Source: Spirochaetia bacterium (GTDB lineage Bacteria > Spirochaetota > Spirochaetia > UBA9216). From it: DNA of 64,000 nucleotides. The first letter of the stretch is position 1. Each line of letters opens with the position of its first letter. The position numbers and the translations under genes are program-made. Positions 23,796 through 42,311 of this stretch are shown here, one piece after another. The stretch spans positions 3,264,001 through 3,328,000 of the forward strand of contig OY776510.1 in assembly GCA_963675665.1 (NCBI GenBank), given 5' to 3'. The notes beneath the pieces are model-generated. The model was not told the origin of the DNA. It was given only the letters and a program-made list of their open reading frames with translations, and searched no databases.

Positions 23796-25307
23796 ATGGA
23801 TGTTGAAAAGCTTCCTGAAGAAGTACAGCAATACATCAAAGATATTGAACGAAAATGGGCAACGAAATACCAGGCGCTGGAAGAGCGTTTCAAGCTTGAA
23901 TTGTTCAAGAAATATAATCGTTCCAGCGAGAAAGACACAGCCGCTCAGATATTACTTTTTGATAGTGAACCGGATATTGCTCCCGAAGAAGAATCTGAAA
24001 CTCAGAAGGTAGAATCCTATACCAAAAAGAAACCTGGTCGAAAGAAGATAAACGAGAATCTTCCCCGTGAAGAAATCCTTATTGATATACCCGAAGAAGA
24101 GAAGAAATGCGCTTGCGGAGCAGAACTGGTTAGAATAGGCGAAGAAATATCCGAACGAATAAAAGTTGTACCGGAACAGATGTGGGTAGAAAGAACCATC
24201 AGACCCAAATATGCCTGTAAGACTTGTGAAGGCAGCGGAGATGAAGATAAACCTGCGGTGCGGATAGCCCCGACTGCTCCCACAATCTTTCCCAAAAGCA
24301 TAGTAACACCCGAGCTCCTTGCATTTTTGCTTGTAAATAAATATGTAGATCATTTGCCTTTCTACCGGCAGGAAAAGAGATTTGAGCGAATAGGGATCAG
24401 CATAAGCCGACAGGATATGAGCAACTGGCAAAGACAGGCATATGAAGCTCTTATAATCCTGCTTGAACTGATGAAAGAACATCTGAAAACCGGTTCGGTT
24501 ATGCAGATGGATGAAACGAGAATACAGGTTCACAATGAACCGGATAGGCCTGCTACTCGAAACTCCTATATGTGGCTTGCCCGAGGGGGGCCTCCGGGGC
24601 AAGTTGCAATTCTATATGAATATCATGAAACGAGGGGTTCTAAGAATATTCGCAGTTTTCTGGACGGATTCAGCGGCTATCTTCAGACTGACGGTTATGA
24701 AGCATATGTTACAGCGTTGAAAGATTATCCAGATATAATTCATGCCGGTTGTTTTGCTCATGCAAGACGGAAATTCTTTGATGCATCAAGAGTATCCAAG
24801 AAACCTGGCAGTGCTGCTGAAGGGCTGAAATATATTCAGAAACTGTATTTGATAGAGAATGAACTCAGAGCTAAAAACTTAAGTGAACCCGAGTTTCTTG
24901 CAGAAAGAAAAAAGAAGGCAGAACCGCTATTGGCCAAGTTCAGTTCCTGGCTTGAGAAAAGGCAGCATAATGTTGTTCCTTCGACTGAACTCGGAAAAGC
25001 GATATCATATACAATTGGGCAATGGAGCAAACTTGTAAATTATCTTGAATCACCTTATTTGACTCCGGATAATAATGCCTGTGAAAATGCTATCAGGCCG
25101 TTTGTGTTGGGCAGGAAAAACTGGTTGTTTGCCGGCAGCCCAAAAGGTGCTGAGAGTTCTTGCGGGATTTATTCACTTGTTGAAACAGCAAAGCAAAACG
25201 ATCTCAACCCTTATGTTTATCTGAGAAAAGTATTTACCGAAGCTCCGTTGATGAAGTCCAGTGAAGATTGGCAGGAGCTTCTTCCCTGGAATATTTATCT
25301 TAACTGA
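23796..25307 (+). CDS. tnpC: IS66 DDE transposase TnpC
   Basis: KY.DHLP.YRQ, MDET, LQTDGY, C.AHARRKF, DNN..E.AIRP...GRKNWLF. Confidence 0.96.
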   Translation: MDVEKLPEEVQQYIKDIERKWATKYQALEERFKLELFKKYNRSSEKDTAAQILLFDSEPDIAPEEESETQKVESYTKKKPGRKKINENLPREEILIDIPEEEKKCACGAELVRIGEEISERIKVVPEQMWVERTIRPKYACKTCEGSGDEDKPAVRIAPTAPTIFPKSIVTPELLAFLLVNKYVDHLPFYRQEKRFERIGISISRQDMSNWQRQAYEALIILLELMKEHLKTGSVMQMDETRIQVHNEPDRPATRNSYMWLARGGPPGQVAILYEYHETRGSKNIRSFLDGFSGYLQTDGYEAYVTALKDYPDIIHAGCFAHARRKFFDASRVSKKPGSAAEGLKYIQKLYLIENELRAKNLSEPEFLAERKKKAEPLLAKFSSWLEKRQHNVVPSTELGKAISYTIGQWSKLVNYLESPYLTPDNNACENAIRPFVLGRKNWLFAGSPKGAESSCGIYSLVETAKQNDLNPYVYLRKVFTEAPLMKSSEDWQELLPWNIYLN

Positions 25308-26213: not shown

Positions 26214-27110
26214 TTATACCAGTGATACCCCTGCCAGTATTGAGTAATACTTAATCTTGTCGCTGTCGCTTCGTGAGGTGAGGATGATTGGAACATCGGC
26301 GCCTGCAATAAGTCCTGCCATCGGGTAATCGGTAAGGTATGCAATGGATTTGTAAAATATATTGGCAGCTTCGATGTCCGGGAAAAGCAGAACATCAGCG
26401 TCTCCTCCGACTTCTGTTTTTATTCCCTTGATTTCACAGCTTTTGGTCGATATTGCATTGTCCAGTGCAAACGGGCCGTCAATAATACAGTTTTTAATCT
26501 GCCCCCGATCCGACATCTTTGCCAATACTGCCGCGTCAAGGGTTGCAGGCATTGCAGGGTTGACTTTTTCTACAGCTCCTACAACAGCAACCTTCGGGGT
26601 TTCTACTCCGAGTTTCCGGGACACAGCGACTGCATTTTCTACAAGAGAGATTTTGTCTTTCAGTTCTGGCGCAATGTTAAGCGCTGAATCAGTTGAAATG
26701 ATAAGCTTATGGTATGTCGGCGGATTTAAAATTGCTATATGCGACAGAACACCTGAACCGCGAAGGCCTTTTTCCTTGTCCAGGACAGCCCTCATAATTG
26801 TAGCTGTTGAAGTTTTACCCTTCATAAGGCAGTCTCCGCGGCCGTTCCGGATTAATTCAACGGCTACGGCGGCGCAATTCTTTTCTCCATCGGTATTAAT
26901 AATTTCAAAAGAACTTATGTCAACTCCGCATTCGTTTGCAGTCTTCCTGATGTCGCCACTGTTGCCTACCAGTAATACATCTATAATTCCTGCTGATGCT
27001 GCTTCGCTGACAGCTTTAAGCGCGTCGGCTTCTTCGGCCATTGCAAGTACCACTTTTTTTGATTCATTATCAACAGCGGTTTTTTCAAGTTCGGCAAAAC
27101 TTGTTATCAT
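26214..27110 (-). CDS. ptb: Phosphate acyltransferase (phosphate butyryltransferase-like)
   Basis: LMKG...TA, D.ALNIAP, E.VNP.MP.T.DA, DGPFALDNAIS, P.IEAANI.YK, PIILTSRSD. Confidence 0.9.
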   Translation of the reverse strand: MITSFAELEKTAVDNESKKVVLAMAEEADALKAVSEAASAGIIDVLLVGNSGDIRKTANECGVDISSFEIINTDGEKNCAAVAVELIRNGRGDCLMKGKTSTATIMRAVLDKEKGLRGSGVLSHIAILNPPTYHKLIISTDSALNIAPELKDKISLVENAVAVSRKLGVETPKVAVVGAVEKVNPAMPATLDAAVLAKMSDRGQIKNCIIDGPFALDNAISTKSCEIKGIKTEVGGDADVLLFPDIEAANIFYKSIAYLTDYPMAGLIAGADVPIILTSRSDSDKIKYYSILAGVSLV

Positions 27111-27230
27111 TATTTTCCTCCTGTGGGATATAAGAACAACTTAATTATAGTTGACTTTATATATACGGCATTCTACAATCATATCCTATAAAATGGATAA
27201 AGAAAACAGCCAGGACTAAAAGGATGAAGC

Positions 27231-27986
27231 ATGCTATCAATACAAGGCGTAAGCAAACATTTCGGCGGTCTTAAAGCTCTAAAGGGCGTAAGCTTCAATA
27301 TTGAAGAGGGCAGAATTCACGGTATTATCGGTCCGAACGGATCTGGTAAAACGACAATGTTCAATTGTATTACCGGACTTTTAGAGGTAACTTCAGGTCA
27401 GATTTTCCTTGATGATACGGAGATTACTGGTAAACCGCCTCATTTGATTTCTAATCTTGGGATAAGACGAACATTTCAGCAGGGCAAACTTGTACCGTCA
27501 ATGACGGTAGTTGAGAATGTAATGAGCGGTATTTTTGAATATGGAAGACATGATATTGCTGATACCTTTTTCCGATTGCCGTTATCTGAATCAAAAAAGG
27601 AAATTCAGCTTCGGGAGCAGGCGCTTGAGATGCTTGAAATGCTTGATCTGGCAGATTCTGCTGAAAGATGGGCGTACGACCTTGTATGGGCGGAGCGGCA
27701 GTTTGTGCAGATTGCACGTGCTGTTGTTTCAAAACCCAAAATGCTGCTCCTTGATGAGCCGGCATCAGGAATGGGTCCTGCAGAAACAAGCGAAGTAGGT
27801 GAACTGATTAAGAAGGTTAAAAAAATGGGGATTACTCCTGTTGTTGTCAGTCATGATATGAAAATGCTGATGAATGTTGCCGAGATGGTAACGGTCCTTA
27901 ATTTCGGTGATAATATTTTTGAAGGTACACCCGATCAGGTACAGAAAGATCCTAAAGTACTGGAGGCATACCTTGGCACCGAATGA
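27231..27986 (+). CDS. Liv/HAAT-type ABC transporter ATP-binding protein (LivG-like)
   Basis: GIIGPNGSGKTT, RTFQ, LLLDEPASG, V.EAYLG. Confidence 0.92.
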   Translation: MLSIQGVSKHFGGLKALKGVSFNIEEGRIHGIIGPNGSGKTTMFNCITGLLEVTSGQIFLDDTEITGKPPHLISNLGIRRTFQQGKLVPSMTVVENVMSGIFEYGRHDIADTFFRLPLSESKKEIQLREQALEMLEMLDLADSAERWAYDLVWAERQFVQIARAVVSKPKMLLLDEPASGMGPAETSEVGELIKKVKKMGITPVVVSHDMKMLMNVAEMVTVLNFGDNIFEGTPDQVQKDPKVLEAYLGTE

Positions 27987-28689
27987 AAAAATTCTTGAGA
28001 TAAAAAATCTGACGGTAGCTTACGGTCATGTACAGGCTTTGTCGAATATAAGCCTTGATGTAGGCAGGGGGGAAATTGTTGTTCTGGTAGGAGCAAACGG
28101 AGCCGGTAAAACCAGTATAATGGAAACAGTTCTGGGTGCAAATGTTCCGGTAAGCGGAGAAATCGAGTTCAAGGGCCGGAAAATTCAGGGAGTTCCAGTC
28201 GACAGGAACGTAAGAAACGGAATGTTTCTGGTTCCGGAAGGCCGTGGCGTGTTTTCGTCAATGAATGTAATGGATAATCTTTTACTTGGAGCGCATCACA
28301 ACCTTAAAGAATCCGATAAAAAACTTGAACTTGTTTTTGATTCATTTCCGGTACTCGGTGAACGCAGAAACCAGATTGCAGGAACTCTCAGCGGAGGAGA
28401 AAGGCAGATGCTTGCCATTGCCAGGGCTCTGATGTCGTCTCCGGAGATGATAATGGTTGATGAGCCGTCGATTGGTCTTGCCCCGATTATTGTTAACGAT
28501 ATTTTTGAAATACTTGTCAATCTTAATAAGGAAGGGTATTCGATACTTCTCTCAGAGCAGAATGTATACAAGGCTCTCAAGATATCTCACCGGGGTTATG
28601 TGCTTGAGACGGGAAAAATCACGAAAAGCGGAACGGCAGAAGAGTTGTTGAATGATGAAGCCGTACGCGAAGCATATCTTGGAGCATAG
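27973..28689 (+). CDS. Liv/HAAT-type ABC transporter ATP-binding protein (LivF-like)
   Basis: GANGAGKT, VPEGR, LSGGERQMLA, DEPS.GLAP; start set to TTG 27973 (GGAGG SD). Confidence 0.92.
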   Translation: MAPNEKILEIKNLTVAYGHVQALSNISLDVGRGEIVVLVGANGAGKTSIMETVLGANVPVSGEIEFKGRKIQGVPVDRNVRNGMFLVPEGRGVFSSMNVMDNLLLGAHHNLKESDKKLELVFDSFPVLGERRNQIAGTLSGGERQMLAIARALMSSPEMIMVDEPSIGLAPIIVNDIFEILVNLNKEGYSILLSEQNVYKALKISHRGYVLETGKITKSGTAEELLNDEAVREAYLGA

Positions 28690-28692
28690 CTT

Positions 28693-29580
28693 ATGGAAAT
28701 ATTGATTGCTCAAATTTTCAACGGATTATCGATAGGAAGTATTTATGTACTGCTGGTAACAGGATTTAATCTTCTGCTTCTGGTAGCAATGATAATACAT
28801 TTTTCTTTTCCGGTTGTAGTTGTTTTTTCAATGTATATATCATGGTTTGTAATGAATGTTACCGGAAACGTTGCGCTTGGAATAATTCTGGGCATAGTGT
28901 CAGCTATAATCGTCAATATGATAACTGCCCCGATGTTTCAGCATATTATGAAAGAGCGTGGCTCGGTAGATATTAACGCGACGATGGTTATATCCATGGG
29001 TATGGGTATGATTATTACGGATATTCTTTCCCACACGTTTAACCAGGGCTTCCCTGTGGCCTTTCCGGATGCTTTGACCGGAAACGATAAAGGCGCTTTT
29101 ATAAGCGTCGGACTGGTAAGTATTTCAAGAGGACAGGTCCTTACGCTTATTATCGGCGTAATATTTGTTTTATTTTTATTCTGGCTGCTATATAAAACGC
29201 GTTCCGGCCGTGCTTTCCGCGCAATCGCCGAAGACCCGAACGGTGCAAAGCTTGTAGGCATTCCGCTGTTAAAAACAGGTTTTCAGAGCTATGCGCTGAC
29301 AGGCTTTCTCGGTGGAATGACGGCTGTGCTTATGGCGGTACTTCTGGGTTCAGCATCGGCCGGACTGGGCGACCAGCTAGGTCATAAAGTTCTTGCTGTA
29401 TCGATTATTGCAGGCCTTGGCAATCTGACCGGGGGCCTTATAATAGGGTTACTGCTCGGAATACTTGAAGCAATTATACAGGGCTATCTTGCCGGTTCGT
29501 GGTCGAACGCGATAGCGTTTATTATCATGCTGGTTGTAATACTTGCGAAACCCAAAGGGGTTTTCGGAAGCAAGCTTTAA
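28693..29580 (+). CDS. Liv-type ABC permease (LivH-like)
   Basis: NGL..GSIY.L...G, T..GRA.RA..ED...A.L.GI, I.GLGN..G. Confidence 0.9.
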   Translation: MEILIAQIFNGLSIGSIYVLLVTGFNLLLLVAMIIHFSFPVVVVFSMYISWFVMNVTGNVALGIILGIVSAIIVNMITAPMFQHIMKERGSVDINATMVISMGMGMIITDILSHTFNQGFPVAFPDALTGNDKGAFISVGLVSISRGQVLTLIIGVIFVLFLFWLLYKTRSGRAFRAIAEDPNGAKLVGIPLLKTGFQSYALTGFLGGMTAVLMAVLLGSASAGLGDQLGHKVLAVSIIAGLGNLTGGLIIGLLLGILEAIIQGYLAGSWSNAIAFIIMLVVILAKPKGVFGSKL

Positions 29581-29592
29581 CTGGAGGTTATT

Positions 29593-30474
29593 GTGTCTTT
29601 AACTTTGTTTTATTATCTGGCGATAACCGCCATTTACATTCTTATGAGCTGGTCGATATATATTCCTTACCGGGTAGGACAGCTGCATTTTATAACAGTG
29701 GCAAACATGGCTATATCTGCGTATTTTGCAGCGCTGATGGCGATAAACTTTGCCTGGCCGTTCTGGCTTGTGCTGGTGGCCGGCACGCTGCTTGGGGCTT
29801 TAATCGGGTTTCTGGTTTCGTATGCAATCGGAGACGCCCCGTGCTTTGCAGTTGTAATTGTGGGATTTACTTTTATTTACCTGACAAAGACGATTATTGA
29901 AAATGTAGAAGCTTTCGGAGGCCCTCTGGGGATTTTCAGTATTCCGAAGATAATGCAGACTTCTTCCGACAACAGAACACTGCTTCTGATTGTAGTATAT
30001 GTCCTGGTTTTGGTAACGGGTTTTCTGATTAACCGCTTTGATCATTCAAGGCTGGGGCGGGCTGCGTCAGCAATATTTATTGATCGGGACCTCGCAGTTT
30101 CTTTCGGCGTTGATGTTAAAAAAATGGGAATGTTTCTGCAAACCTGGGCCAGTGCAATCGGAGGGATGTCGGGGGTTATGTATGCGTTCATAATGAGAAG
30201 CATTTCACCTAACCATTTCACATTCCATCTTATAGGAGTATGCATGACAATGCTTTTTGTCGGCGGGTATACGACAATGTGGGGAGCAATGCTGGCCGCT
30301 CCGATATTATGGGGATTTCCGCTTATCCTTCCTGAAGCACTTCAATCCTGGAATATAGTAATATACGGCGTACTTCTGATAATCGTACTGGTAATTAAAC
30401 CTGAAGGAATTATAACCAGACCCATGATAAAAAAAATGGAAAGTTTGCTGTCGCGGAACAGAAAAAAGGTTTAA
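29593..30474 (+). CDS. Liv-type ABC permease (LivM-like)
   Basis: SRLGRA...I..D...A...GVD, GG..T.WG, PEGI. Confidence 0.88.
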   Translation: MSLTLFYYLAITAIYILMSWSIYIPYRVGQLHFITVANMAISAYFAALMAINFAWPFWLVLVAGTLLGALIGFLVSYAIGDAPCFAVVIVGFTFIYLTKTIIENVEAFGGPLGIFSIPKIMQTSSDNRTLLLIVVYVLVLVTGFLINRFDHSRLGRAASAIFIDRDLAVSFGVDVKKMGMFLQTWASAIGGMSGVMYAFIMRSISPNHFTFHLIGVCMTMLFVGGYTTMWGAMLAAPILWGFPLILPEALQSWNIVIYGVLLIIVLVIKPEGIITRPMIKKMESLLSRNRKKV

Positions 30475-30532
30475 AATAAAAAGGGGAATAGTACATTACA
30501 AATTAATGTACATAAAATAAATGGAGGAAAAC

Positions 30533-31759
30533 ATGAAAAAAATTCTAACACTTGTTCTAGTGAGTTTTCTACTGTTCTTTGTTTTTGCATGTCAAAAAGA
30601 AGAAGCGGCAAAAGCTGAAGAGAAAACTGCCGAAACAACTGCAGTTGCTGAAGAGAAAACTCCTGAGGTTGTAGTTGATGAATGGGAAATACCGTTTCTC
30701 AATTGTCTTACAGGACCTATCGCCAGTATTGGTGAATACCTGCAGTGGGGCGCGGAATTTGCTGCAGAGCAGATTAATGCAGCCGGGGGAATCTCCGGAA
30801 AACCCGTAACGATTGTCAGAGTTGATACCGGAATGAGTCCCGAGAAGGGTACTGTTGAAATGTCGAAGCTTGTAGAAGATGCGCTTGTAGTCATGGGCCC
30901 GGTTCCTGAGCCTGTTATTATGGCTGCTGTACCTATTGCTGCCGATGAAGGTCTTTACAGCTTTACGGCTACCACATCTTACGAATATGCCGCTGAATAC
31001 TTTCCTTGGGCAGTTTCATGGTTTTCTCCTACAGATGAAAAACTGCCGCCGATTGTAACAGCATGGGCTGAAAAGGTAGAAGCAAAGAATGTAGTTCAGT
31101 TTGTTGAAAATTACGGAGCATGGCCGGGAATGGCTGCTGCTCATGTTATCGGTCTTGAAAATGCCGGTTGTACCGTACTTGAAGATGTTGAGGTTCCTCA
31201 GGATGCTGTTTCATTCGGTCCTCTTATTGTAAAGGCCCTTGCTCAGGATCCGGATGCAATTGTTTTTGCATGTAATGCTGAAAAGGTCGCCAAGATTATA
31301 ATTGAACTGAAAAACAGGGGCTGGGAAGATATGAACAAGCTTCTTGTTTTCTCAAGTGCTGACGATGCCGCGCTTTACACTACAGGCGGAAGCAAAATCG
31401 ACGGAGTTATGATCTATAACTATAATGATCCTAATCTTGATACCGCAAGATGGAATGAGTTCAGACAGGGCTTCAAGGATGATCATGAAGGTATGGAGCC
31501 ATTCTCACTTTCGCCGAATTATTATGACGCAGTATATATGATTAAACGTGCTATTGAAGAAACCGGCGTTACCGGAGATCCTGCAAAACTTGCTGAAGAA
31601 AGAATCAAGATCAGAGATTACTGTAACGACATAAAGAACTTTGAAGGGCTTCAGTTTGACTGGAGTAACAAAGGCGGTTATCCTGCTGATAAACCTCTGT
31701 TCCTGTTTGAAATCAAGGGCGGAGCAAAAAATCTTGTTGCAAAGATAGTTCCTGAATAA
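30533..31759 (+). CDS. Liv-type substrate-binding lipoprotein
   Basis: Lipobox FVFAC; LTGP.A..G, INAAGGI.GK, YDAVY; ATG 30533 has GGAGG SD. Confidence 0.9.
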   Translation: MKKILTLVLVSFLLFFVFACQKEEAAKAEEKTAETTAVAEEKTPEVVVDEWEIPFLNCLTGPIASIGEYLQWGAEFAAEQINAAGGISGKPVTIVRVDTGMSPEKGTVEMSKLVEDALVVMGPVPEPVIMAAVPIAADEGLYSFTATTSYEYAAEYFPWAVSWFSPTDEKLPPIVTAWAEKVEAKNVVQFVENYGAWPGMAAAHVIGLENAGCTVLEDVEVPQDAVSFGPLIVKALAQDPDAIVFACNAEKVAKIIIELKNRGWEDMNKLLVFSSADDAALYTTGGSKIDGVMIYNYNDPNLDTARWNEFRQGFKDDHEGMEPFSLSPNYYDAVYMIKRAIEETGVTGDPAKLAEERIKIRDYCNDIKNFEGLQFDWSNKGGYPADKPLFLFEIKGGAKNLVAKIVPE

Positions 31760-31771
31760 AAAGTTGAAGGG

Positions 31772-31853
31772 GCGCCATAAATCGGCGCTACTCAGGCGGA
31801 ACCCCCGCCTGTTTATATAATAAGTCGCAGCCGGGGCATTCCTGACTGCGGCT
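31772..31853. terminator. Three consecutive stem-loops between convergent operons
   Basis: GCGCC..GGCGC; CAGGCGG..CCGCCTG; AGTCGCAG..CTGCGGCT followed by T-rich tail. Confidence 0.6.
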
Positions 31854-31877
31854 TTCCTTTTATATACTCAGTTATGT

Positions 31878-32795
31878 TCAGCGGTTCAAATCTATTGTTT
31901 TTACAATACGTGCTACAGTTCGGTTTACAGGAACATCTATTCCAAGTTTGTCTGCAGCTCGTACAATAGCATTATTTATAAAATCAATTTCAGTTGCGCT
32001 GCCGCGGTCAAAGTCCTGAAGCATTGACGAGCGGTTAGGTCCCGTCTTTTCTGAAACTGAATAGACTGTTTCAAGCGGTTTGTCATATGTAAGTGTGATC
32101 CCGGATTTATTACAAACCAAAACTGCTTCTTCAACAAGATCTTTCATTATTGCTTTTGTTTCATCAAAATCAAGAAGCTGGCCGTTTTTAAGTCCGGTAA
32201 GAGCCGTAAGAGCATTTATTCCGACATTGATTACAAGTTTGCTCCATACAAGGCTTTCAATATTATTTTCAATATCTGCTTCAAAGCCGGACGATTTCAG
32301 AACATCGATGAAAGGTAACAGTTTGTCGTTTTTTTTATCGGACATACATATATGGGTAGGGCCGTTACCTGCATGTTTGATGTGACCAGGGCCTGCAAAA
32401 GTTGCTCCCTGAGAGGTAACGCCCGCGGCGGTATTTGACGGTCCGAAATGGTTTTTAAGAATCTCCTCGTTGCCATAGCCGTTTTGCAGAGTAACAACTA
32501 CAGTTCCCGGTAATGCTGCAGATTTGAAATTGGAAGCAACAATTTCAGTAGCCGTAGATTTTACAAAAACAATAATAATATCCGAACCGTTTACAGCCGC
32601 AGGGTCGGAACTGGCCTCAGGGTAAACCGTATCGGTTTTGCCGGTGGCAAGCGTTTCGATTATCAAACCGTTTGAATTTATTGCGTCTATATGCGCCTTG
32701 TTGATGTCATACAGAACAACCTCGTTTCCCGAGGCCGAAAGCTTTCCGCCGAAAAGAGAACCCATTGCGCCCGCGCCGATAATGGATATTTTCAT
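31878..32795 (-). CDS. panE: 2-dehydropantoate 2-reductase
   Basis: IIGAGAMG, VKS, TLQNG, W.KL..N..IN.LTAL, SSMLQD...G..TEID.IN. Confidence 0.92.
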   Translation of the reverse strand: MKISIIGAGAMGSLFGGKLSASGNEVVLYDINKAHIDAINSNGLIIETLATGKTDTVYPEASSDPAAVNGSDIIIVFVKSTATEIVASNFKSAALPGTVVVTLQNGYGNEEILKNHFGPSNTAAGVTSQGATFAGPGHIKHAGNGPTHICMSDKKNDKLLPFIDVLKSSGFEADIENNIESLVWSKLVINVGINALTALTGLKNGQLLDFDETKAIMKDLVEEAVLVCNKSGITLTYDKPLETVYSVSEKTGPNRSSMLQDFDRGSATEIDFINNAIVRAADKLGIDVPVNRTVARIVKTIDLNR

Positions 32796-32810
32796 TTATA
32801 ACCTCCGATA

Positions 32811-33776
32811 TTATTTAATTCCATGTAATTCTGAATAGCTTTTTACGCCGAACATGGAGACGGCGCTTTTGACGGCATCAATAATTGCAAGAGAAGTTGC
32901 GTCGGCAGCAAGCACGCAAACTGCGTCGAGCGCTGATTTAACCCCGCCGGTAGACATACAGAACATTGTATCTCCGTCGGTGGTCGTGTGTGAAGGGTTA
33001 ATGGCCCTGGCCATTCCGTCGTGGCTTACCATTGCTACCCGTTTCGCTTCAGCCTTAGTTAAATCGGCATTGGTTGCAACAACTCCTATAGTTGTATTTT
33101 TCATGAACTGTTCGGAATATTCATTCCAGCTTCCGCGCATAAGTTCGTTTACCGACCTGAAATTGCCGTCGGAATCAAGGGCGCCCGCAAGTATTTCACC
33201 TGTTTTAGGGTCGATAACGTCGCCGAGGCTGTTTACGGCAATTATTACGCCGACGACAAGGTCGCCGTTTCTGATGCTTGCAGTGCCGAGACCGCCTTTC
33301 ATAACATTGGACGGTCCCCCCGCAATTCCAATGGATGCTCCGGTTCCTGCGCCTACGCAACCCCTTTCGGCATTATCGCTGCTCATGTTACAGCAGGCCA
33401 GGTAGCCCATTTCCCGATCGGGTCTTACTTTCGGATTACCGATAAGCAGATCGTAAAGAATTGCCCCGGGAACTATCGGGACAGTAGCAAAACCCGTGTC
33501 AAAGCCTATACCTTTCTCTTCAAGGTACTGCATGACGCCGCAGGCGCCGTCCAGTCCGAATGCGCTGCCGCCCCCAAGATAAACAGCATGAGCGTGCTTA
33601 ACAAGGTTTTCCGGCGCGAGGCAGGACAGTTCCCTTGTGCCGGGGGCTCCTCCTGTACAGGAGTAACCCGTAACCGCACCGTTTGCTGCAGCAATTACAG
33701 TACATCCTGTACCGTTTTTCATATCCTGGGCATGACCGACTTTTATTCCCGGTACATCACAGATTGAATTAAGCAT
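32811..33776 (-). CDS. P1/S58 family (DmpA-like) self-processing amide hydrolase
   Basis: GIKVGH, GGAPGTRE, GGSAFGL, GAGTGA, NTTIGVVATNA, HDG.ARAI.P.HT..DGD. Confidence 0.9.
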   Translation of the reverse strand: MLNSICDVPGIKVGHAQDMKNGTGCTVIAAANGAVTGYSCTGGAPGTRELSCLAPENLVKHAHAVYLGGGSAFGLDGACGVMQYLEEKGIGFDTGFATVPIVPGAILYDLLIGNPKVRPDREMGYLACCNMSSDNAERGCVGAGTGASIGIAGGPSNVMKGGLGTASIRNGDLVVGVIIAVNSLGDVIDPKTGEILAGALDSDGNFRSVNELMRGSWNEYSEQFMKNTTIGVVATNADLTKAEAKRVAMVSHDGMARAINPSHTTTDGDTMFCMSTGGVKSALDAVCVLAADATSLAIIDAVKSAVSMFGVKSYSELHGIK

Positions 33777-33788
33777 GTTAGACCTCGA

Positions 33789-34985
33789 TTATTTATTTAG
33801 TGTTTCTTCAGTTTCAACGGCTATCATCATCTCTTCATCAGTCGGGATGACGAGAATTTTCACTCTTGAATCTTCAGCGGATATCAGAGCTTCCTTCCGG
33901 CAACCCCTGTTACGTTTTTCATCAATTTTGATTCCCAGAAACTCAAGCCCGACGCATATTGAGGATCTTATTGTATCGGAATTCTCTCCGACGCCGGCAG
34001 TAAAAATAAGAGCATCCATTCTACCGTTAAGGCTGGGCATAAGCGCCCCTATATACCTGCGGATTGAACGCGTAAAGACATTAAGCGCCAGGACGGCCCG
34101 CTGATTCCCGTTATCAGCAGCTTCAAGAATATCACGAATGTCGCTTGATATTCCGCTGAGTCCGAGAAGCCCTGATTTTTTATAGATAAGTTCCTTAACA
34201 TAATCCACTGAATATCCCAAATTGCCGATAAGCTGAAGCACGACCTCAGGGTCTACGTCTCCTGATCTTGTTCCCATGGGAACCCCGCAGACAGTGCCGT
34301 AGCCGAGTGATGTATCAACTCCCGAACCGCCGATTGATGCTGCAAGGGTAACGCCGCCGCCGATATGGCAGCTTATTGTATGAAGATTTTTCAATGGTAT
34401 ACCCAGTATCTCCGCAGCCCTGATATTGATATATTTATGAGATGCGCCGTGATAACCGAATTTTCTGAAACCGTGTTCGGAATAGCAGGCGTAATCGAGT
34501 GCATATATATATGCTTCCTGTTCCATACCGCTGTAATACGCTGTGTCGAACGATGCAACATGAGGAATATCAGGAAGTTTTTGCTGGGCAGCCTGGACTC
34601 CCAACAGGCAGGCAGGATTATGAAGCGGGGCAAGAGGCGTATATTTTTTAATTTCAATTAAAAGTTCAGGCGTTATTAAAACCGGTCCGGACATTCCTGC
34701 ACCGCCCTGAACAATCCTGTGGCCGACTGCGTGTATTTCGGAAATATCTTTAATCAAGCCGGCGGAAGGGGCAATAATACTTTCAAGCGCATAGTCTATT
34801 GCCGTGTTGTGATCCGGAATATCAAGTTCTTTAACAATTTTATCCCGGCCGGAAGGCTGGAAATTGAGAATTCCGTCAATTCCGATACGTTCAATAAGCC
34901 CTTTGGCCAGGGTAATCTTTTTACCGGTTTCTATCAATTGAAATTTAAGCGATGAACTGCCGCTGTTGATTACAAGTATATTCAT
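33789..34985 (-). CDS. ackA: Acetate/short-chain carboxylate kinase, divergent active site
   Basis: NSGSSSLKF, LAPLHNP, MGTRSGD.DP, FTAGVGEN, PTDEE; start moved to ATG 34985 (GGAGG SD). Confidence 0.88.
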   Translation of the reverse strand: MNILVINSGSSSLKFQLIETGKKITLAKGLIERIGIDGILNFQPSGRDKIVKELDIPDHNTAIDYALESIIAPSAGLIKDISEIHAVGHRIVQGGAGMSGPVLITPELLIEIKKYTPLAPLHNPACLLGVQAAQQKLPDIPHVASFDTAYYSGMEQEAYIYALDYACYSEHGFRKFGYHGASHKYINIRAAEILGIPLKNLHTISCHIGGGVTLAASIGGSGVDTSLGYGTVCGVPMGTRSGDVDPEVVLQLIGNLGYSVDYVKELIYKKSGLLGLSGISSDIRDILEAADNGNQRAVLALNVFTRSIRRYIGALMPSLNGRMDALIFTAGVGENSDTIRSSICVGLEFLGIKIDEKRNRGCRKEALISAEDSRVKILVIPTDEEMMIAVETEETLNK

Positions 34986-35128
34986 ATAATAGCCTCCGAA
35001 GTACGGATATCTTAGCATATTTGCGCAAACATTCAAGTAAAAGATTCAAAAACAATGCTGTTAAGAAAAGTAATAATGGGTTATAGTAGAAGCACAAAAA
35101 GAAAATATGGAATTAAGAGGAGAATTAT

Positions 35129-35995
35129 ATGAGTTCGCATCCTGAAGAAACAAAAAAACTGCTCACAGCAGATTTGCAGAAGATGAAAGACAACGGAGAA
35201 AAGATTTCAATGATCACAGCTTATTCATATCCGCAGGGGATGATAGTCGATCAGGCCGGAATAGATATAATACTGGTAGGTGATTCTCTCGGAATGGTTG
35301 AGCTTGGTTATATTGATACTGTGCCTGTAACAATGGACGAAATGCTTATGCATACAAAAGCTGTAACAAGAGCCGTAAAACGCGCTCATATAGTAGGTGA
35401 TTTACCGTTTATGTCATACAACATTTCAACCGAACAGGCTGTTACAAATGCCGGTATTCTTTACAAGGACGGACGGGCCGATTCGGTTAAATTTGAAGGC
35501 GGTCAGGATTATGCAAATATAGCCTCTGCAGTTACCCGGGCGGGAATACCTTTTTTTGCTCATATTGGACTGACTCCGCAGACAGCAGCCATGCTGGGCG
35601 GTTTCAAGGTACAGGGAAAGTCAATTGACGCGGCAAAGGCAGTTCTTGACGATGCACTTGCAATGCAGGATGCCGGTGCATTCGCTATAATTCTCGAAGC
35701 TATTCCTCAGCAGCTTGCAGCGATTATTACTGAGAAACTTACAATACCCACAGTTGGAATAGGGGCCGGACCGGACTGTGCGGGCCAGGTACTTGTACTG
35801 CATGATATGGTTGGATTGTTTAAGAGGTTTACACCGAAATTTGTAAAGGTTTACGCTGACATGTATACTACACAGCTGGACGCAGTAAAGAATTATATAA
35901 GTGATGTGAAGGATGTAAAATTTCCTGCTGAAGAGCATAGTTTTAATATGAAGCAGGATATGGTTGAAGAACTTAAAAAAGCAATCGGGGTATAA
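35129..35995 (+). CDS. panB: 3-methyl-2-oxobutanoate hydroxymethyltransferase
   Basis: LVGDSLGM, DLPFMSY, VK.EGG, HIGLTPQ, GIGAG..C.GQVLV.HD. Confidence 0.96.
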   Translation: MSSHPEETKKLLTADLQKMKDNGEKISMITAYSYPQGMIVDQAGIDIILVGDSLGMVELGYIDTVPVTMDEMLMHTKAVTRAVKRAHIVGDLPFMSYNISTEQAVTNAGILYKDGRADSVKFEGGQDYANIASAVTRAGIPFFAHIGLTPQTAAMLGGFKVQGKSIDAAKAVLDDALAMQDAGAFAIILEAIPQQLAAIITEKLTIPTVGIGAGPDCAGQVLVLHDMVGLFKRFTPKFVKVYADMYTTQLDAVKNYISDVKDVKFPAEEHSFNMKQDMVEELKKAIGV

Positions 35996-36907
35996 ATGTC
36001 GGCGGAATTAATAAAAGGCTCAGTAATCCGTGAGGAGATCCTCACGGAACTGAGGGCCGAGACTGAGGAGCTTAAAAAAAAATACGGGAAAGTTCCCGGA
36101 CTGGTAACAATTCTTGTCGGAGAAAGCCCGGCATCTGTTTCTTATGTTACCCTGAAGATCAAGACAGCCAAAAGTTTGGGGTATAATGAAATTCAGGACA
36201 GCAGGTCTGTTAATATTACGGAAGAAGAATTGCTTGAGCTGATCAAAAAGTATAATAAAGATGACAGTATAAACGGAATTCTTGTTCAGTTGCCGCTGCC
36301 GGACCATATTGATGAAAAGAAAGTCATTAATGCAATTGATCCTGACAAAGACGTCGACGGCTTTCATCCTGTAAATGTCGGACGTCTAATGATAGGCGGC
36401 GATGAGGTGCTGTTTCCGCCGTGTACACCGGCAGCAATACAGGAGATGATACTTCGGGCGGGCGTGGAAACCAGAGGCGCTGAAGTCGTAGTAGTAGGCA
36501 GATCCAATATTGTCGGAAAACCAATCGCAAATATGATGCTTCAAAAGGGGCCGGGAGCTAATTCCACGGTGACTGTTGTTCATACCGGAACAAAAGACCT
36601 CGCTGCTCACTGTCTGCGGGCAGATATACTTATAGTTGCTGCAGGAGTCCCGGGCTTGGTCAAACCAGAATGGATAAAGCGCGGAGCCTGTGTAATCGAT
36701 GTGGGTGTTAACAGGATCGGCGAAAAGGTAAGTGAAAAAACAGGCAAAACTATTGCAGTGTTGAAAGGCGATGTTGATTTTGAAGCGGCCCGTGAGCGGG
36801 CCGGCTGGATAACCCCGGTTCCGGGAGGTGTCGGACCGATGACTATTACAATGCTGATGAAGAATACTTTAAAATCGTTTAAAAACAGTCTCGGAATAAA
36901 AATATAA
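35996..36907 (+). CDS. folD: Methylene-THF dehydrogenase/cyclohydrolase
   Basis: GILVQLPLP, KDVDG.HP, PCTP, GRSNIVGKP, ITPVPGGVGPMT. Confidence 0.96.
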   Translation: MSAELIKGSVIREEILTELRAETEELKKKYGKVPGLVTILVGESPASVSYVTLKIKTAKSLGYNEIQDSRSVNITEEELLELIKKYNKDDSINGILVQLPLPDHIDEKKVINAIDPDKDVDGFHPVNVGRLMIGGDEVLFPPCTPAAIQEMILRAGVETRGAEVVVVGRSNIVGKPIANMMLQKGPGANSTVTVVHTGTKDLAAHCLRADILIVAAGVPGLVKPEWIKRGACVIDVGVNRIGEKVSEKTGKTIAVLKGDVDFEAARERAGWITPVPGGVGPMTITMLMKNTLKSFKNSLGIKI

Positions 36908-36962
36908 CAATTAATTGGCTGAAATATCCGGAGAGAAGATTTTATTTATGGATATCCAGGGT

Positions 36963-36994
36963 ACATCTCTATAAACTGCAGTTTTTAGAGATGT
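36963..36994. repeat. Intergenic palindrome copy 1
   Basis: ACATCTCTATAAACTGCAGTTTTTAGAGATGT (one mismatch). Confidence 0.85.
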
Positions 36995-37049
36995 CCTTAT
37001 TTTAAAAGCTTAATAAATTATGTAAATTAAGACAGAAAGTTTAAAAAAA

Positions 37050-38144
37050 GTGAAAATGGAAATTGACAGGTACCAAAAAGAATATATACAACACATTACA
37101 ATAATTGCTTCAAAATGTATTTTCCTGATATCATTATCAGCCTTCCTGGTAAACGGAGCATGGTTCTTTTTTGATGATTTTAAAAAGACCCTGTTCCAGG
37201 AAAGTGTAATTCTAAGCGCAACAATGTTCAGCTTTATTAATATTCATTTATCTAAACGAGGTTATATTTTACAGGTATTCAGATGCTATCTTGTATACGG
37301 CCTTTTTTTCGGAGTAATGATAATGTGGAGCGCCGGTGATTTTTTTATTTTTACCGGAATATCAATAATTTCAATATGTTCCCTTATGGCAATTTTTGCA
37401 ATGCAGCGAAAAGAATCGGTTTTCTGGTGTATAATGTATTTTTCAGCCGGAATAGCAGGTTTGTTTTTAAGATATTTTATTAATATATGGGAATCAGGGT
37501 TTTCGTTAATACAAACCGTTCAGATTTCAATTTTTATGTTTATCGCAATTGGAGCATTTATTTTTTTGGGTGTAAATATTTCCTCAATGTTGAAAACTGC
37601 AATGAATAATATAAATGTTCAGAAACAGGAAATTGAGGAATATGCGTCTAAACTTTATAAGTTGTCTATTACGGACAAATTGACAGGATTGAATAACAGG
37701 CTCCATCTCGACGAAGTTTTAAATTCGGAGCTGGAAAGATCTAAAAGATATAATGCATTTTTCGCTGTTATTATGATGGATATTGATTATTTTAAAAAAG
37801 TGAACGACAGATACGGGCATCAGAAAGGCGATGAAGTTTTAAAAAAAATATCGGAATTAATTATTGAAAATATCAGATCTACAGATGTCGCCGGGCGCTG
37901 GGGTGGAGAGGAATTCCTGGTAATCTGTCCCGAATCCGATTCAGCTTCTGCGGAAAAACTTGCGGAAAAGATGAGAATTATAATTGAAAATTACGAGTTT
38001 ATGCTTACATACAATCTGACTGCAAGCTTCGGAATCAGCCAGTATGAAAGTACAGATGACATAGCAAATATCATCTGTAAAACCGACAGAGCCCTTTATC
38101 AGGCAAAACACGAAGGCAGAAACCGGGTAATTGTAAGTAAATGA
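37050..38144 (+). CDS. Membrane-bound diguanylate cyclase (GGEEF)
   Basis: About 6 TM, TDKLTGL.NR, DID.FK.VND.YGH..GD, RSTD...RWGGEEF. Confidence 0.93.
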   Translation: MKMEIDRYQKEYIQHITIIASKCIFLISLSAFLVNGAWFFFDDFKKTLFQESVILSATMFSFINIHLSKRGYILQVFRCYLVYGLFFGVMIMWSAGDFFIFTGISIISICSLMAIFAMQRKESVFWCIMYFSAGIAGLFLRYFINIWESGFSLIQTVQISIFMFIAIGAFIFLGVNISSMLKTAMNNINVQKQEIEEYASKLYKLSITDKLTGLNNRLHLDEVLNSELERSKRYNAFFAVIMMDIDYFKKVNDRYGHQKGDEVLKKISELIIENIRSTDVAGRWGGEEFLVICPESDSASAEKLAEKMRIIIENYEFMLTYNLTASFGISQYESTDDIANIICKTDRALYQAKHEGRNRVIVSK

Positions 38145-38170
38145 ATCCGTAATATTTTTTTCTGTCGCAG

Positions 38171-39934
38171 CTAAAACAAGCCTTTAACCTTGCCGGTATT
38201 TACGTCTACATCAATGCGTCTGAAAGCCGGATCTGAAGCCGTTCCGGGCATTAATTTTATATCACCGGCTACCGGGACTATAAAACCTGCACCCTGATAG
38301 ATTAGAATATCACGTATCGGAAGTGTCCAGCCTGTTGGGCGGCCCTTGATTGACGGGTCATGAGACAGGCTGAGATGAGTTTTTACCATACAGGTCCCAA
38401 GCGTCGCAAGGCTTTTGTCTGACTGAATATCTTCAAGCTTTTTAAGAGCTTCAGGAGTGTAACTTACGCCGTCGGCTCCGTAAACTTCTTTTGCTATAAG
38501 CTCAATTCTTTTTCCAAGAGGCGTATTATCCGAATAAAGAAATCTGAAATCAGGAGTAATTTCGCATGCTTTTACAACAGCCTCGGCCAGTTCGATTGCA
38601 CCTTCGCCGCCCTTTTCCCAGTGTCTGGAAACAGCAACGCCTGCTCCGGCAGCAATGCATGCGTCTTTTATAACCTGAAGCTCATTTTCAGTATCAGTAT
38701 AAAAATGGTTGATACAGACAACGGCGGGTACTCCGCTTTTTTTAACTGTTTCAATGTGTTTAAGAAGGTTTTCCAGGCCTTTCTTTACAAGCGAGGTGTT
38801 TTCTTCAGTATAAGCTTTATCCAGCGGTTTGCCCGGAGCTACACGTGGGCCGCCTCCGTGCATTTTTAACGCCCGTACGGTACAGACAATAACGGAGCAG
38901 TTGGGGGTAAGCCCTGAAAATCTGCATTTAAGGTTCCAGAATTTTTCAAAACCTATATCCGCTCCGAATCCGCTCTCGGTTACATGGTAATCTGCAAGTT
39001 TCAATCCAAGTCTGTCTGCAATTATCGATGACTGCCCGATCGCTATGTTTGCGAAAGGACCGGCATGAACCAGAACGGGCTGTCCTTCAATTGTCTGCAT
39101 AAGATTCGGGTTGATTGCTTTCGACATAATAGCCGTCATTGCTCCGTCAACTTCAAGATCCGCAGCGGTTACAGGCGCACCTTTTTTATCGTATCCTACA
39201 ATCATTCTTGAAATTCTTTCGCGCATATCTTTCAAATCTTTTGCTACGGCAAGTATGGCCATTATTTCGGAAGAAACGGTTATCTGGAAACCGCTTTTCA
39301 TCATGAATCCGTCCATCTTTCCGCCGAGACCGATAATGATTTCTCTCAGTGCCTGTGCCGAGAAATCAATGGCCCATCCGATTGCCGGATTGCTCGGGTC
39401 AATATCAAGACGTTTCACATTTTTCTTTTTCAGGGTTTCATCACTGTAATTGAACTCATGCTGAATACGGCTGGTTAGAGCAACCATTGCAAGATTATGG
39501 GCGTTTGTTATTGCATCGTTATCGCCAGTAAGTCCCAGACTGAAGTCAGAAAGGGGAATACACTGGGCCAGGCCGCCTCCTGCAGCGGAACCTTTTATAT
39601 TGAAGGTAGGACCGCCTGAAGGCTGACGAATTGCCCCGGCAACTGATTTCCCGATTTTTCCGAGACCCTGGACAAGTCCCATGGTCGTAGTTGTTTTTCC
39701 TTCGCCCAAAGGCGTGGGATTGATGGCGGTAACCTCAATATATTTTCCGTTTGGTTTATTTTCGAGGCGGTCGAGAATTGCCTTATAGTCAAGTTTGCCG
39801 ATATAGTGACCGTACGGAAGGACTTCTTCATCCTTGAGGCCGAGATCTTCGGCAATTTGACGAACTGTTTTCATGTTTTTTTCTGAAAGTTCAGCGATCT
39901 CCCAGTCTTTAAGTTTTGTAGGATCAAGTTTCAT
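38171..39934 (-). CDS. fhs: Formate--tetrahydrofolate ligase
   Basis: [48 protein letters not shown]; start moved to ATG 39934. Confidence 0.96.
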
Positions 39935-39983
39935 TTTTGCTCCAGAAAAGAAGTTGTAAAAAGTTATTTTCAATAAAAAGAAG

Positions 39984-40011
39984 ATCTCCAAAAACTGCAG
40001 TTTTTGGAGAT
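39984..40011. repeat. Intergenic palindrome copy 2
   Basis: ATCTCCAAAAACTGCAGTTTTTGGAGAT, perfect 28-bp dyad. Confidence 0.85.
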
Positions 40012-41063: not shown

Positions 41064-42311
41064 TTAAATCTCGTTTGCAGTTTTAAGTATGCACTGGAGA
41101 AGTACATTCACACCGCGTTCACAGTCTTCGTACGGAGTGTCTTCTACCTCAACGTGGCTTCTTCCGTCGATGGACGGAACGAAGATCATTGCGCCGCGGG
41201 TGATCTGGTTTACTTCGCTCATGTCATGTCCGGCGCCGGAAACCATACGTTTGCAGCTGTACCCGAGTTCTTCGGAAGTCTCAACAACCCTGTCCCAGAG
41301 TATTTTGTCGAATGGTGCATGAGCAACCTTCCAGGTTTCTTCCGTTTTTATAGGACAACCGCGTCTTTCGGCGATTACTTCGAATTCTTTTTTCATCATT
41401 TCCCATGCTTTTATAGCATGATCATCATCCCAGGAACGGATATCAACTGTAAAGTGAACACCGTCCGGAATTATGTTTCTTGAATTCGGATAGTTCTGAA
41501 TTTCTCCTACAGTTCCAACCATATTACCCATCTGATGGGCAACCTTATTTACCACAATGTTCATTTCGGAAAAGGCAAGCAGAGCATCGTTTCTGCCAAT
41601 CATTGGAGTAGGGCCAACCTGGTTGGCTGTGCCTTCAAGCCAGATGTCGTACCAGTGCAGGCAGAGAATACCCTTGGGAGCCCCTATTTGGATTTTTTCA
41701 CGGTGAAGGACCGGGCCCTGTTCAATGTGCAGTTCATAGGCTGCGTAAATATCCCATTCCTTGTGTGATGCCGGGAATGTACCTTTATAACCGATTCTGT
41801 CGAGTTCTTCACCGAAAACGGTTTTACCGTCGCGGTCTTTTCTGGCATAAGCCCATTCTTTGGTATGATTGCCTACCCAAACGCCCGAACCCATACATGC
41901 AGGGGCAAACCAGCCGCCTTCTTCATTGGTCCAGTCAACAATAACAAGATCACGTTCAAGTTCGATTTTGTTCTCGTTGATAACCCGCATTACTTCGAGT
42001 GCGCCAAGGACCCCAAGGATTCCGTCAAACCTGCCTCCGGGACGCTGTGTGTCAAAGTGTGAGCCTGTCATAACTGCGCCTAGATTTGGGTTTTTACCCG
42101 AACGCCTGGCAAAAATGTTGCCCATTTCATCGATAATTACTTCACAACCACATTCCTTGTACCATTTAACCAGAAGGTCGCGGCCGATTTTGTCTTCATC
42201 GGTAGCTGCGCAACGGATAAGTCCGTTGTTCTCTGTTTTTCCGATTCTGGCAGACTCTTCTATAGTACTTTGCAGCCTGGCGCCGTCGACTCGTAATTCA
42301 TTTAACTCCAT
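41064..42311 (-). CDS. M20 Zn-dependent amidohydrolase (beta-ureidopropionase/N-carbamoylase family)
   Basis: GSH.DT...GG.FDG.LGV, WTNEEG, ELHIEQGP, SGAGHD, G.SH...E. Confidence 0.92.
   Translation of the reverse strand: MELNELRVDGARLQSTIEESARIGKTENNGLIRCAATDEDKIGRDLLVKWYKECGCEVIIDEMGNIFARRSGKNPNLGAVMTGSHFDTQRPGGRFDGILGVLGALEVMRVINENKIELERDLVIVDWTNEEGGWFAPACMGSGVWVGNHTKEWAYARKDRDGKTVFGEELDRIGYKGTFPASHKEWDIYAAYELHIEQGPVLHREKIQIGAPKGILCLHWYDIWLEGTANQVGPTPMIGRNDALLAFSEMNIVVNKVAHQMGNMVGTVGEIQNYPNSRNIIPDGVHFTVDIRSWDDDHAIKAWEMMKKEFEVIAERRGCPIKTEETWKVAHAPFDKILWDRVVETSEELGYSCKRMVSGAGHDMSEVNQITRGAMIFVPSIDGRSHVEVEDTPYEDCERGVNVLLQCILKTANEI

Follow-up and report, generated by a model that had tools for sequence, protein, structure and literature searches.

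Why would a bacterium that has no recognisable enzyme for making pantothenate keep panB and panE, two genes of pantoate synthesis, and keep them beside an importer, a hydrolase and genes for substrate-level phosphorylation? The question is raised by a gene cluster at positions 26,214 to 39,934 of the window, by which we mean the whole 64,000-nucleotide stretch analysed here (contig OY776510.1 of assembly GCA_963675665.1, positions 3,264,001 to 3,328,000, forward strand), from a Spirochaetia bacterium (UBA9216) whose genome is complete on a single contig of 5.15 Mb. The initial annotation, made from the letters alone, had read the cluster as the pan pathway in reverse. Comparative genomics lends support to that idea through the conservation of the cluster, the absence of PanC and CoaB, two fuller versions of the cluster in other genomes (L022 and L088; loci from other genomes carry L numbers) and the genomic associations of the hydrolase family. 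We think it fairly probable that the cluster serves the fermentative catabolism of pantothenate-type compounds, that is, of pantothenate, pantetheine or free pantoate as fragments of coenzyme A (CoA).

Genes in the 64-kb window were called from the list of open reading frames (ORFs), Pfam matches and the curated cut-offs of NCBIfam, and the ptb gene, five-gene Liv-type importer, ackA-S58-panE operon, panB-folD operon and fhs reported by the initial annotation are all where it had placed them. At the centre is panB, for ketopantoate hydroxymethyltransferase (35129–35995, plus strand), with a full-length match to Pantoate_transf (PF02548, E 2.1e-107, 358.8 bits, positions 4–259 of 259) and 312 bits against the 207.55-bit cut-off of the equivalog TIGR00222. 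The panE gene of the 2-dehydropantoate 2-reductase family (31878–32795, minus strand) matches ApbA (3.9e-36) and ApbA_C (1.1e-36) and scores 267 bits against 141.35 for TIGR00745; all narrower equivalog models fall below cut-off, and its substrate specificity is not settled by score. By these curated cut-offs PanB and PanE are bona fide members of their families. Together with panE, an S58 self-processing amidohydrolase (DmpA/OAT-fold or 'P1 family'; 32811–33776, Peptidase_S58 PF03576, 3.7e-44, 151.9 bits) and an AckA-family carboxylate kinase paralogue (33789–35036, Acetate_kinase 1.9e-129, TIGR00016 416 bits against 293) form a tight minus-strand operon, with gaps of 15 bp between panE and S58 and 12 bp between S58 and the ackA-like gene, whose likely start is Met18 at about 34985. 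Divergent from it are panB and folD, for methylene-tetrahydrofolate (THF) dehydrogenase/cyclohydrolase (35996–36907, plus strand, equivalog NF010765 551 bits against 501), and folD does begin on the base following the panB stop, the 0 bp gap that had been claimed. Further along is fhs, formate-tetrahydrofolate ligase (38171–39991, minus strand, FTHFS 2.4e-233, equivalog NF010032 1088 bits against 938), which likely starts at 39934 since NF010032 aligns from residue 20; 39934 is also the end coordinate given by the initial annotation. The genes it listed are all present, but it left out a GGDEF diguanylate cyclase gene between folD and fhs (37050–38144, plus strand, GGDEF 3.2e-46). This gene is probably outside the pathway; tblastn of the fetched loci L091 and L092 finds fhs directly after folD.

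One reason to doubt a biosynthetic role is what is missing. The initial annotation saw no panC or panD in the window, and this extends to the entire single-contig genome, where searches detected neither PanC nor PanD; of the 14 reference genomes that served as controls, 9 gave PanC and 8 gave PanD. A sample of the order (11 genomes from 5 genera, the source genome included) has PanC in none, and since the same search readily detected PanC elsewhere in the phylum (106 of 151 genomes), its absence from the order is not a problem of sensitivity. The CoaB domain PF04127 is likewise found in 0/11 order genomes against 14/14 controls, and archaeal PPS in 0/11, which also led us to reject an archaeal pantoate kinase/PPS route. 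Without PanC, PanD, CoaB and PPS, PanB and PanE cannot feed CoA synthesis; judged by gene content, neither the step from pantoate to pantothenate nor that from pantothenate to 4′-phosphopantetheine is possible in these bacteria. PanB is nevertheless kept in 9 of the 11 (the two genomes that lack it are 81% complete), S58 in 10, IlvD in 9 with the source genome among them, CoaE in all 11 and CoaX in 6. PanB is found in 30 of 61 genomes of a class sample, and the eight genomes of the class that fall in both the PanC and the PanB samples all lack PanC, five having lost PanB and three having kept it.

The source genome has one copy of PanB, one true FolD, one Fhs and three genes of the PanE family. 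A search for a second, housekeeping panBC locus, as the initial annotation had advised, found none, panB being single-copy and panC absent. That annotation would have counted it against its own reading if these copies were the only ones and constitutive, or if the cluster were not conserved: panB, folD and fhs are indeed the sole copies, which is half of the first case, but the cluster is conserved, as set out below. A homologue of CoaX, the type III pantothenate kinase, is encoded outside the window at G000:C1:3204300-3204911 despite the lack of PanC and CoaBC, and the retained enzyme may phosphorylate pantetheine or have another role.

A search for co-localised panB, panE, folD, fhs and S58 without panC had been suggested as a check. 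The cluster, in versions that differ in gene content, is found in 9 of the 11 order genomes and in five further spirochaete metagenome-assembled genomes (MAGs), and part of it lies on a short contig in a tenth order genome. Besides the source genome, eight order genomes have S58 and panB on one contig 0.2–1.5 kb apart. Ten order loci (L090–L099) were fetched and searched by tblastn with the window proteins and five L022 proteins (E ≤1e-15, more than half of the query covered, at least 35% identity). S58 is present in nine of these, L098 having only a PanB paralogue, and panE stands beside S58 in eight of the nine, L090 being the exception. In seven loci (L090–L093 and L095–L097) the ackA-S58 pair is divergent from an adjacent panB-folD pair; panE is present in six of the seven (missing from L090), and fhs lies within the fetched stretch in six. 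The distance from fhs to folD is within about 3 kb in L090–L093, L095, L096 and L022, and in L091 and L092 panB, folD and fhs are contiguous on one strand. Five order loci have the Liv importer next to the cluster, three have ptb there, and in two an extra M20 gene adjoins panE. The smaller versions are L094, where panE-S58 stands beside panB with neither ackA nor folD, and L099, a 3.2 kb contig with ackA-S58-panE alone. Since the arrangement recurs across the order, it is not due to chance.

A wider scan of the genome collection with an S58 alignment returned 80 loci, eight of them labelled spirochaete, and all eight have panE beside or near S58, five with panB and the Liv importer as well. 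The five further cluster-bearing spirochaete MAGs mirror the order in gene content, with PanC in 0/5, CoaB in 0/5 and PanB in 5/5; one of the five has three PanB copies and another has two. Clusters of these other spirochaete families lack the AckA paralogue. Within the order, the S58 of the window is only 51–55% identical to its counterparts, less than its neighbours are to theirs (PanE 59–85%, PanB 76–90%, Liv proteins 79–93%), its best database matches are metagenome proteins at 73–83% identity, and in a tree it falls beside a different spirochaete MAG, L011. It looks as if the S58 gene of the window was replaced from within the phylum.

Two loci outside the order carry fuller versions of the set. 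L022, a spirochaete MAG, encodes fhs, folD, a two-subunit 2-oxoacid:ferredoxin oxidoreductase (alpha, beta/gamma) and panB, followed by S58, PduL, panE, an ArgE/DapE-type M20 deacylase, livJMHFG, a channel of the formate/nitrite family and ptb. L088, a Clostridiales MAG, has on one strand folD, an IclR regulator, panB, panE, the alpha, beta and gamma subunits of the oxidoreductase, an enzyme resembling butyryl-CoA:acetate CoA-transferase, an e(P4)-type phosphatase, an OPT transporter and S58; PanC was not found in its genome, and CoaB is present. In both, folD is near panB. The initial annotation had placed the 2-oxoacid oxidoreductase outside the window. An orthologue of the L022 enzyme is indeed encoded elsewhere in the source genome (C1:2129763-2132292, 62% and 59% identity), with uninformative neighbours across C1:2123000-2139000, and in L022 and L088 the oxidoreductase is encoded within the cluster. 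The source genome has IlvD, and therefore the supply of 2-oxoisovalerate for synthesis needs no oxidoreductase. The oxidoreductase, the enzymes that take acyl-CoA to free acid, the formate channel, the phosphatase and the importers would fit breakdown and are predicted to have no role in vitamin synthesis.

The S58 protein is the sole amidase common to all cluster versions examined. It belongs to its family by the PF03576 match and a conserved site of predicted self-cleavage: T228 and T229 are invariant among 30 homologues and N227 is at least 90% conserved. In the PDB its matches are the nylon-oligomer hydrolase 9cxr (E 2e-62), an 'L-aminopeptidase/D-esterase' (1.5e-53) and ThnT of thienamycin biosynthesis in Streptomyces cattleya (3tm1 and 3s3u, 1e-47; also 4ihd and 4ihe), and the N-T-T processing site aligns with all three solved relatives. 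The initial annotation had compared the hydrolase with DmpA/BapA, and ThnT turns out to be the better comparator, being of the same fold family with the Asn-Thr-Thr site and several active-site blocks aligned. According to a passage of PMC6097109, CoA is first trimmed by ThnR and ThnH, and ThnT then frees cysteamine by hydrolysis of the pantetheinyl amide; HAD or e(P4)-type phosphatases beside S58 in L012, L063 and L088 echo ThnH. The two differ in that ThnT is extended at its N terminus by about 50 residues and carries an insertion (a chain of 419 aa compared to 321 aa), and ThnT is an enzyme of secondary metabolism, whereas the S58 of the window comes from a very large primary-metabolism family (7981 of 8000 scored candidates matched).

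The nearest homologues and loci of the window S58 are from Spirochaetota, and a FastTree phylogeny of 90 S58 sequences, read without support values, broadly groups by phylum. Flanking genes were read in 37 non-spirochaete loci (73 ORFs). An ECF S-component flanks S58 in six, an OPT transporter in four, CoaBC in two, a CoaC-like flavoprotein in one, a BirA-like ligase/regulator in two, an M20 peptidase in two and PanE in one (Geosporobacter, L032); the remaining flanking genes are unrelated or have no known function. None of the S-components has an NCBIfam name, and for the two of six checked the sole significant PDB matches are 4RFS and 6ZG3, entries given in a passage of PMC11521937 as ECF-PanT pantothenate transporters. 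By these neighbourhoods the S58 family is linked with pantothenate and CoA metabolism across phyla and beyond the spirochaetes, and we propose that the enzyme of the window is a pantetheine and/or pantothenate amidohydrolase. PanC is present in seven of ten non-spirochaete genomes that carry S58, so S58 is not a general substitute for PanC. The three without PanC include L032 and L088, both of the checked non-spirochaete genomes in which S58 lies near panE or panB.

Put together, the proposed fermentation would run as follows. The Liv-type ABC system would import pantothenate, pantetheine or pantoate, and the S58 amidohydrolase, of the Ntn type, would cut an amide bond, leaving pantoate and beta-alanine and possibly also cysteamine. 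This may take a further amidase, for which the ArgE/DapE-type M20 proteins of related clusters (L022, L012, L015, L093, L095) are candidates; in the window, the carbamoylase-family genes at 41064–43656 could provide a second cleavage. PanE running backwards would act as a pantoate dehydrogenase to give ketopantoate, and PanB running backwards would split ketopantoate with THF into 2-oxoisovalerate and 5,10-methylene-THF. FolD and Fhs would take the one-carbon unit to formate with one ATP. The 2-oxoacid:ferredoxin oxidoreductase encoded elsewhere in the genome would convert 2-oxoisovalerate to isobutyryl-CoA, which Ptb would turn with phosphate into isobutyryl phosphate and the AckA paralogue into isobutyrate, with a second ATP. 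Simple accounting would give a gain of two ATP per pantoate, while two NAD(P)H and one reduced ferredoxin would have to be reoxidised. For the beta-alanine, the initial annotation had pointed to the operon at 3070–5821, whose dehydrogenase is nearest to acylating sulfoacetaldehyde dehydrogenase in NCBIfam (553 bits against a cut-off of 600). Whether the S58 family is the missing bacterial pantetheinase and/or the orphan pantothenase, feeding an undescribed ATP-yielding fermentation in spirochaetes that lack PanC, PanD and CoaBC, with PanE and PanB reversed and a single PanB cleavage supplying both the FolD/Fhs and the VOR/Ptb/AckA-like ATP modules, seems to us an evenly balanced matter.

The proteins at the two ends of this route were looked at more closely. 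The importer genes on the plus strand encode livG-like (27231–27986) and livF-like (27907–28689, true start probably near 27988) ABC ATPases, both with ABC_tran and BCA_ABC_TP_C domains and with LivG and LivF, respectively, as best NCBIfam matches below cut-off, livH-like (28693–29580) and livM-like (29593–30474) permeases of the BPD_transp_2 family, and a Liv-type periplasmic or lipoprotein substrate-binding protein (30521–31759, Peripla_BP_6 1e-43). Across the clusters of the order the ATPases are 79–86% and the permeases 82–93% identical, and the binding protein is 84–91% identical there and 58–70% identical in other spirochaete clusters. It scores far below cut-off against the LivJ-type model NF011933 (54.7 bits against 477) and in the PDB resembles solely distant Leu/Ile/Val-binding proteins (best E 2.8e-15). 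The architecture is thus Liv-type, and pantothenate, pantetheine or pantoate is the ligand we propose. After the importer operon there is a terminator-like hairpin on the plus strand (31793–31811; 6 of the 7 pairs in its stem are GC, and a T-run comes next), a consensus match only. The promoter and terminator scan returned little besides this hairpin 3′ of the binding-protein gene, and the Rfam scan of the cluster found no riboswitch.

Ptb, a phosphate acyl(butyryl)transferase (26214–27110, minus strand, PTA_PTB 3.4e-50), is below the cut-offs of the phosphate butyryltransferase models (NF004472, 367 bits against 399; TIGR02706, 355 against 410.5) and is clearly nearer to these than to the Pta models (70–90 bits); the gene is kept at the cluster edge in L095, L096, L097 and L022. 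The AckA paralogue matches Thermotoga maritima AckA (PDB 2iir, E 2.8e-115). There are five AckA-family genes in the source genome, three with the canonical G-x-T-P-L-E-G-L-V-M-G-T-R block, and in all seven cluster-linked copies (the window's own and six from the order) G-x-G-T-x-[CA]-G replaces G-x-T-P-L-E-G. The acetate pocket of the Methanosarcina (M. thermophila) enzyme is given in a passage of PMC5517563 as Val93, Leu122, Phe179 and Pro232. With these positions mapped by hand counting on the 2iir alignment, Pro232 becomes Thr in 7/7 linked copies, inside the rewritten motif, Val and Leu are kept, and Phe179 becomes Tyr in the window copy and one other cluster copy. The altered pocket marks a distinct carboxylate kinase whose substrate is not identified by the motif, and we propose that it serves as an isobutyrate kinase in the direction of ATP.

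Several points weigh against a pantothenate fermentation. The direction of a reaction is not readable from sequence, and PanE, as known from the E. coli enzyme, strongly favours ketopantoate reduction, so its oxidation of pantoate must be pulled by later steps. As sole genome copies, folD and fhs must also do housekeeping one-carbon work, and their linkage to panB could partly reflect shared use of folate. The cluster of the window has neither the oxidoreductase nor the formate channel, and a second amidase is found in just 5 of 19 cluster loci (L012, L015, L022, L093, L095); if the cysteamine amide is the sole bond that S58 cuts, as with ThnT, pantoate would have to be released by some other enzyme, not accounted for here. 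In bacteria that have PanC, where S58 stands beside PanT or CoaBC, a role in salvage seems the more natural one for the family. Lastly, pantothenate-type compounds are scarce, so the true substrate may be an analogue.

That last point leads to the first of the other explanations, in which the compound taken up and degraded is some other amide or hydroxy acid, an analogue (another 4-hydroxy-2-oxo acid) takes the place of ketopantoate and pantoate in the PanB and PanE reactions, and S58 serves as a beta- or D-aminopeptidase or amidase of general specificity. The distant resemblance of the binding protein to Leu/Ile/Val-binding proteins only would suit such a substrate, as would a promiscuous nylon-oligomer hydrolase and an 'L-aminopeptidase/D-esterase' as the best PDB matches of S58, and related spirochaetes carry extra PanB paralogues (45–47% identity) in other gene contexts, so PanB-type chemistry is used more widely in the group. 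On the other hand, PanB and PanE score well above their curated equivalog and subfamily cut-offs, S58 orthologues adjoin PanT-like, CoaBC and PanE genes in several phyla, and S58 is homologous to ThnT, and we regard this explanation as unlikely. It is also conceivable that there is no dedicated pathway, folD and fhs being housekeeping genes, panB and panE relics of a pathway to pantothenate that has been lost, and the importer, S58, kinase and ptb parts of an amino-acid or peptide fermentation. Single copies of folD, fhs and panB would be expected in this case, the window forms an island of genes for fermenting nucleobases and amino acids, and AckA and Ptb could serve any acyl-CoA. Relics, however, would not be expected to remain as intact, high-scoring genes in a tight arrangement across five genera of the order and spirochaete families beyond it, nor to be duplicated, as panB is in some MAGs; the loss of panB from five of the eight PanC-less genomes of the class indicates that an unneeded gene does disappear. 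In a different phylum (L088), the set has been put together anew, with an IclR regulator alongside the oxidoreductase and CoA transferase. We find the lack of a dedicated pathway quite improbable.

The remaining explanation turns the cluster back into a synthetic one, where pantoate would be activated to an acyl phosphate or a CoA thioester by the AckA-like kinase, alone or together with Ptb (in L088, by a CoA transferase), and S58, as an acyl-enzyme, would transfer the pantoyl group to beta-alanine from the carbamoylases, so that pantothenate is made without PanC. DmpA/OAT-fold enzymes do use acyl-enzyme intermediates and include true acyltransferases, and such a route would account for panB and panE without panC or panD, for the tight ackA-S58-panE operon, and for the lack of panC in each genome with S58 near panE or panB; the carbamoylase genes lie at a distance of 1–4 kb and are conserved in L090, L095 and L096. 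Yet the pantothenate so made would be useless, with CoaB in 0/11 order genomes and 0/5 other cluster-bearing genomes as opposed to 5/5 controls from other phyla, and because of this absence of CoaB we set the route aside. The AckA paralogue is also absent from the clusters of other spirochaete families, S58 coexists with PanC in 7/10 other genomes, and synthesis leaves no role for an importer, a phosphatase, an OPT transporter, an IclR regulator, a formate channel or an M20 deacylase. We consider synthesis of this kind very improbable.

Additional PanB proteins are found in relatives of the source organism. In L098 (8059-10209), L100 (6728-8868) and L102 (6354-8494), second PanB paralogues with 45–47% identity to the PanB of the window are each followed by a 417–437 aa protein; these partners are 60–66% identical to each other, have no Pfam match and, for the one checked (L098), no NCBIfam match, and the source genome has no homologue of them. 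The L098 locus also has a class I/II aminotransferase and an Lrp-type regulator. A 439 aa gene after panB in L017 was considered as a PanC replacement and rejected; it is unrelated to the partner of the PanB paralogues and has only a 37% relative in the source genome. In L101 (1159-10372), a PanB paralogue stands beside a separate Liv-type importer, a D-2-hydroxyacid dehydrogenase and a GntR/FCD regulator, a context that suggests PanB-type one-carbon chemistry on other imported acids in these spirochaetes.

Much of the rest of the window (1137–14049 and 41064–63180) is given over to genes for the anaerobic breakdown of nucleobases. It includes a xanthine/uracil permease, a PreT/PreA-like dihydropyrimidine dehydrogenase pair (10438–13073), two sets of the xanthine-dehydrogenase type (51538–55054 and 59642–63180), a YgeW-like carbamoyltransferase, a YgeX-like pyridoxal phosphate enzyme, a YgeY-like M20 protein, two amidohydrolases, PduL and two amidases of the carbamoylase family. 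The latter are the tandem M20 hydantoinase/carbamoylase-family genes on the minus strand after fhs (41064–42311 and 42388–43656, TIGR01879 367 and 346 bits against 204), the first of which is kept after fhs in L090, L095 and L096 at 86–93% identity. They are candidates for beta-ureidopropionase-type enzymes of the neighbouring pyrimidine pathway or for the second amide cleavage, and FolD and Fhs could also be used for purine fermentation. A sodium:solute symporter at 7692–9239 is below cut-off for both PutP (266 against 515 bits) and PanF, a symporter of pantothenate (221 against 328). Between 15530 and 20846 there are four consecutive plus-strand ORFs of 340–524 aa with no Pfam family at E 1e-5, and a 988 aa protein at 43880–46846 combines a response-regulator receiver with a PPDK_N domain, the ATP-binding domain of phosphoenolpyruvate-utilising enzymes. 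Mobile elements lie upstream of ptb: a group II intron, with Rfam matches to D1-D4 and domain V/VI at 20981–21146, 21202–21267 and 22729–22799 and a reverse transcriptase/maturase ORF within it (21374–22729), and an IS66 transposase just upstream of ptb (23796–25307). The group II intron domains (20981–22799) are the only Rfam matches in the window.

The proposed route can be placed among known ones. The canonical pathway runs through PanB, PanE, PanD and PanC and then CoaA/X, CoaBC, CoaD and CoaE, of which the window shares bona fide PanB and PanE; unlike that pathway, PanC and CoaB are absent from the order and PanD from the genome, with importer, hydrolase and substrate-level-phosphorylation genes as neighbours instead. 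Clostridial purine and glycine fermentations gain ATP through FolD and Fhs, and branched 2-oxoacids are fermented through VOR, Ptb and a carboxylate kinase. The proposal shares these end modules (10-formyl-THF to formate and ATP; acyl-CoA to acyl phosphate to acid and ATP) and differs in the feeder, in that a PanB-type cleavage of ketopantoate would supply both modules at once. In the aerobic Pseudomonas route worked out in the 1960s, pantothenase (EC 3.5.1.22), pantoate 4-dehydrogenase, aldopantoate dehydrogenase and dimethylmalate dehydrogenase lead to 2-oxoisovalerate. Its start, pantothenate to pantoate and beta-alanine, and the end of its pantoate branch, 2-oxoisovalerate, are shared with our proposal, but it oxidises C4 of pantoate and decarboxylates, whereas the proposed route would oxidise C2 through PanE, move the hydroxymethyl carbon onto THF through PanB and draw energy through Fhs, with no oxygen-linked steps. 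This aerobic route is the only one described for bacterial breakdown of vitamin B5, and its first enzyme is without a known gene, the pantothenase protein being given as still unidentified in a 2023 passage (PMC10393543). According to part of a 2026 review (PMC13602198), microbial pantetheine hydrolases are known solely from ThnT, and bacterial pantetheinases are of current interest for bile-acid-cysteamine chemistry in the gut. Among open-access papers and bioRxiv we found no description of such catabolism of pantothenate, pantetheine or pantoate, or of a link of S58 to it.

Vitamin B5 and fragments of CoA are shared goods in microbial communities. If our reading is right, the cluster offers a complete anaerobic route for their breakdown and candidate genes for two orphan activities, pantothenase and a bacterial pantetheinase. 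It would also be an example of core biosynthetic enzymes kept for catabolism after the rest of their pathway was lost. Automatic annotation would count panB and panE in these spirochaetes as partial synthesis of B5, and would thereby misjudge which members of a community make the vitamin and which consume it.

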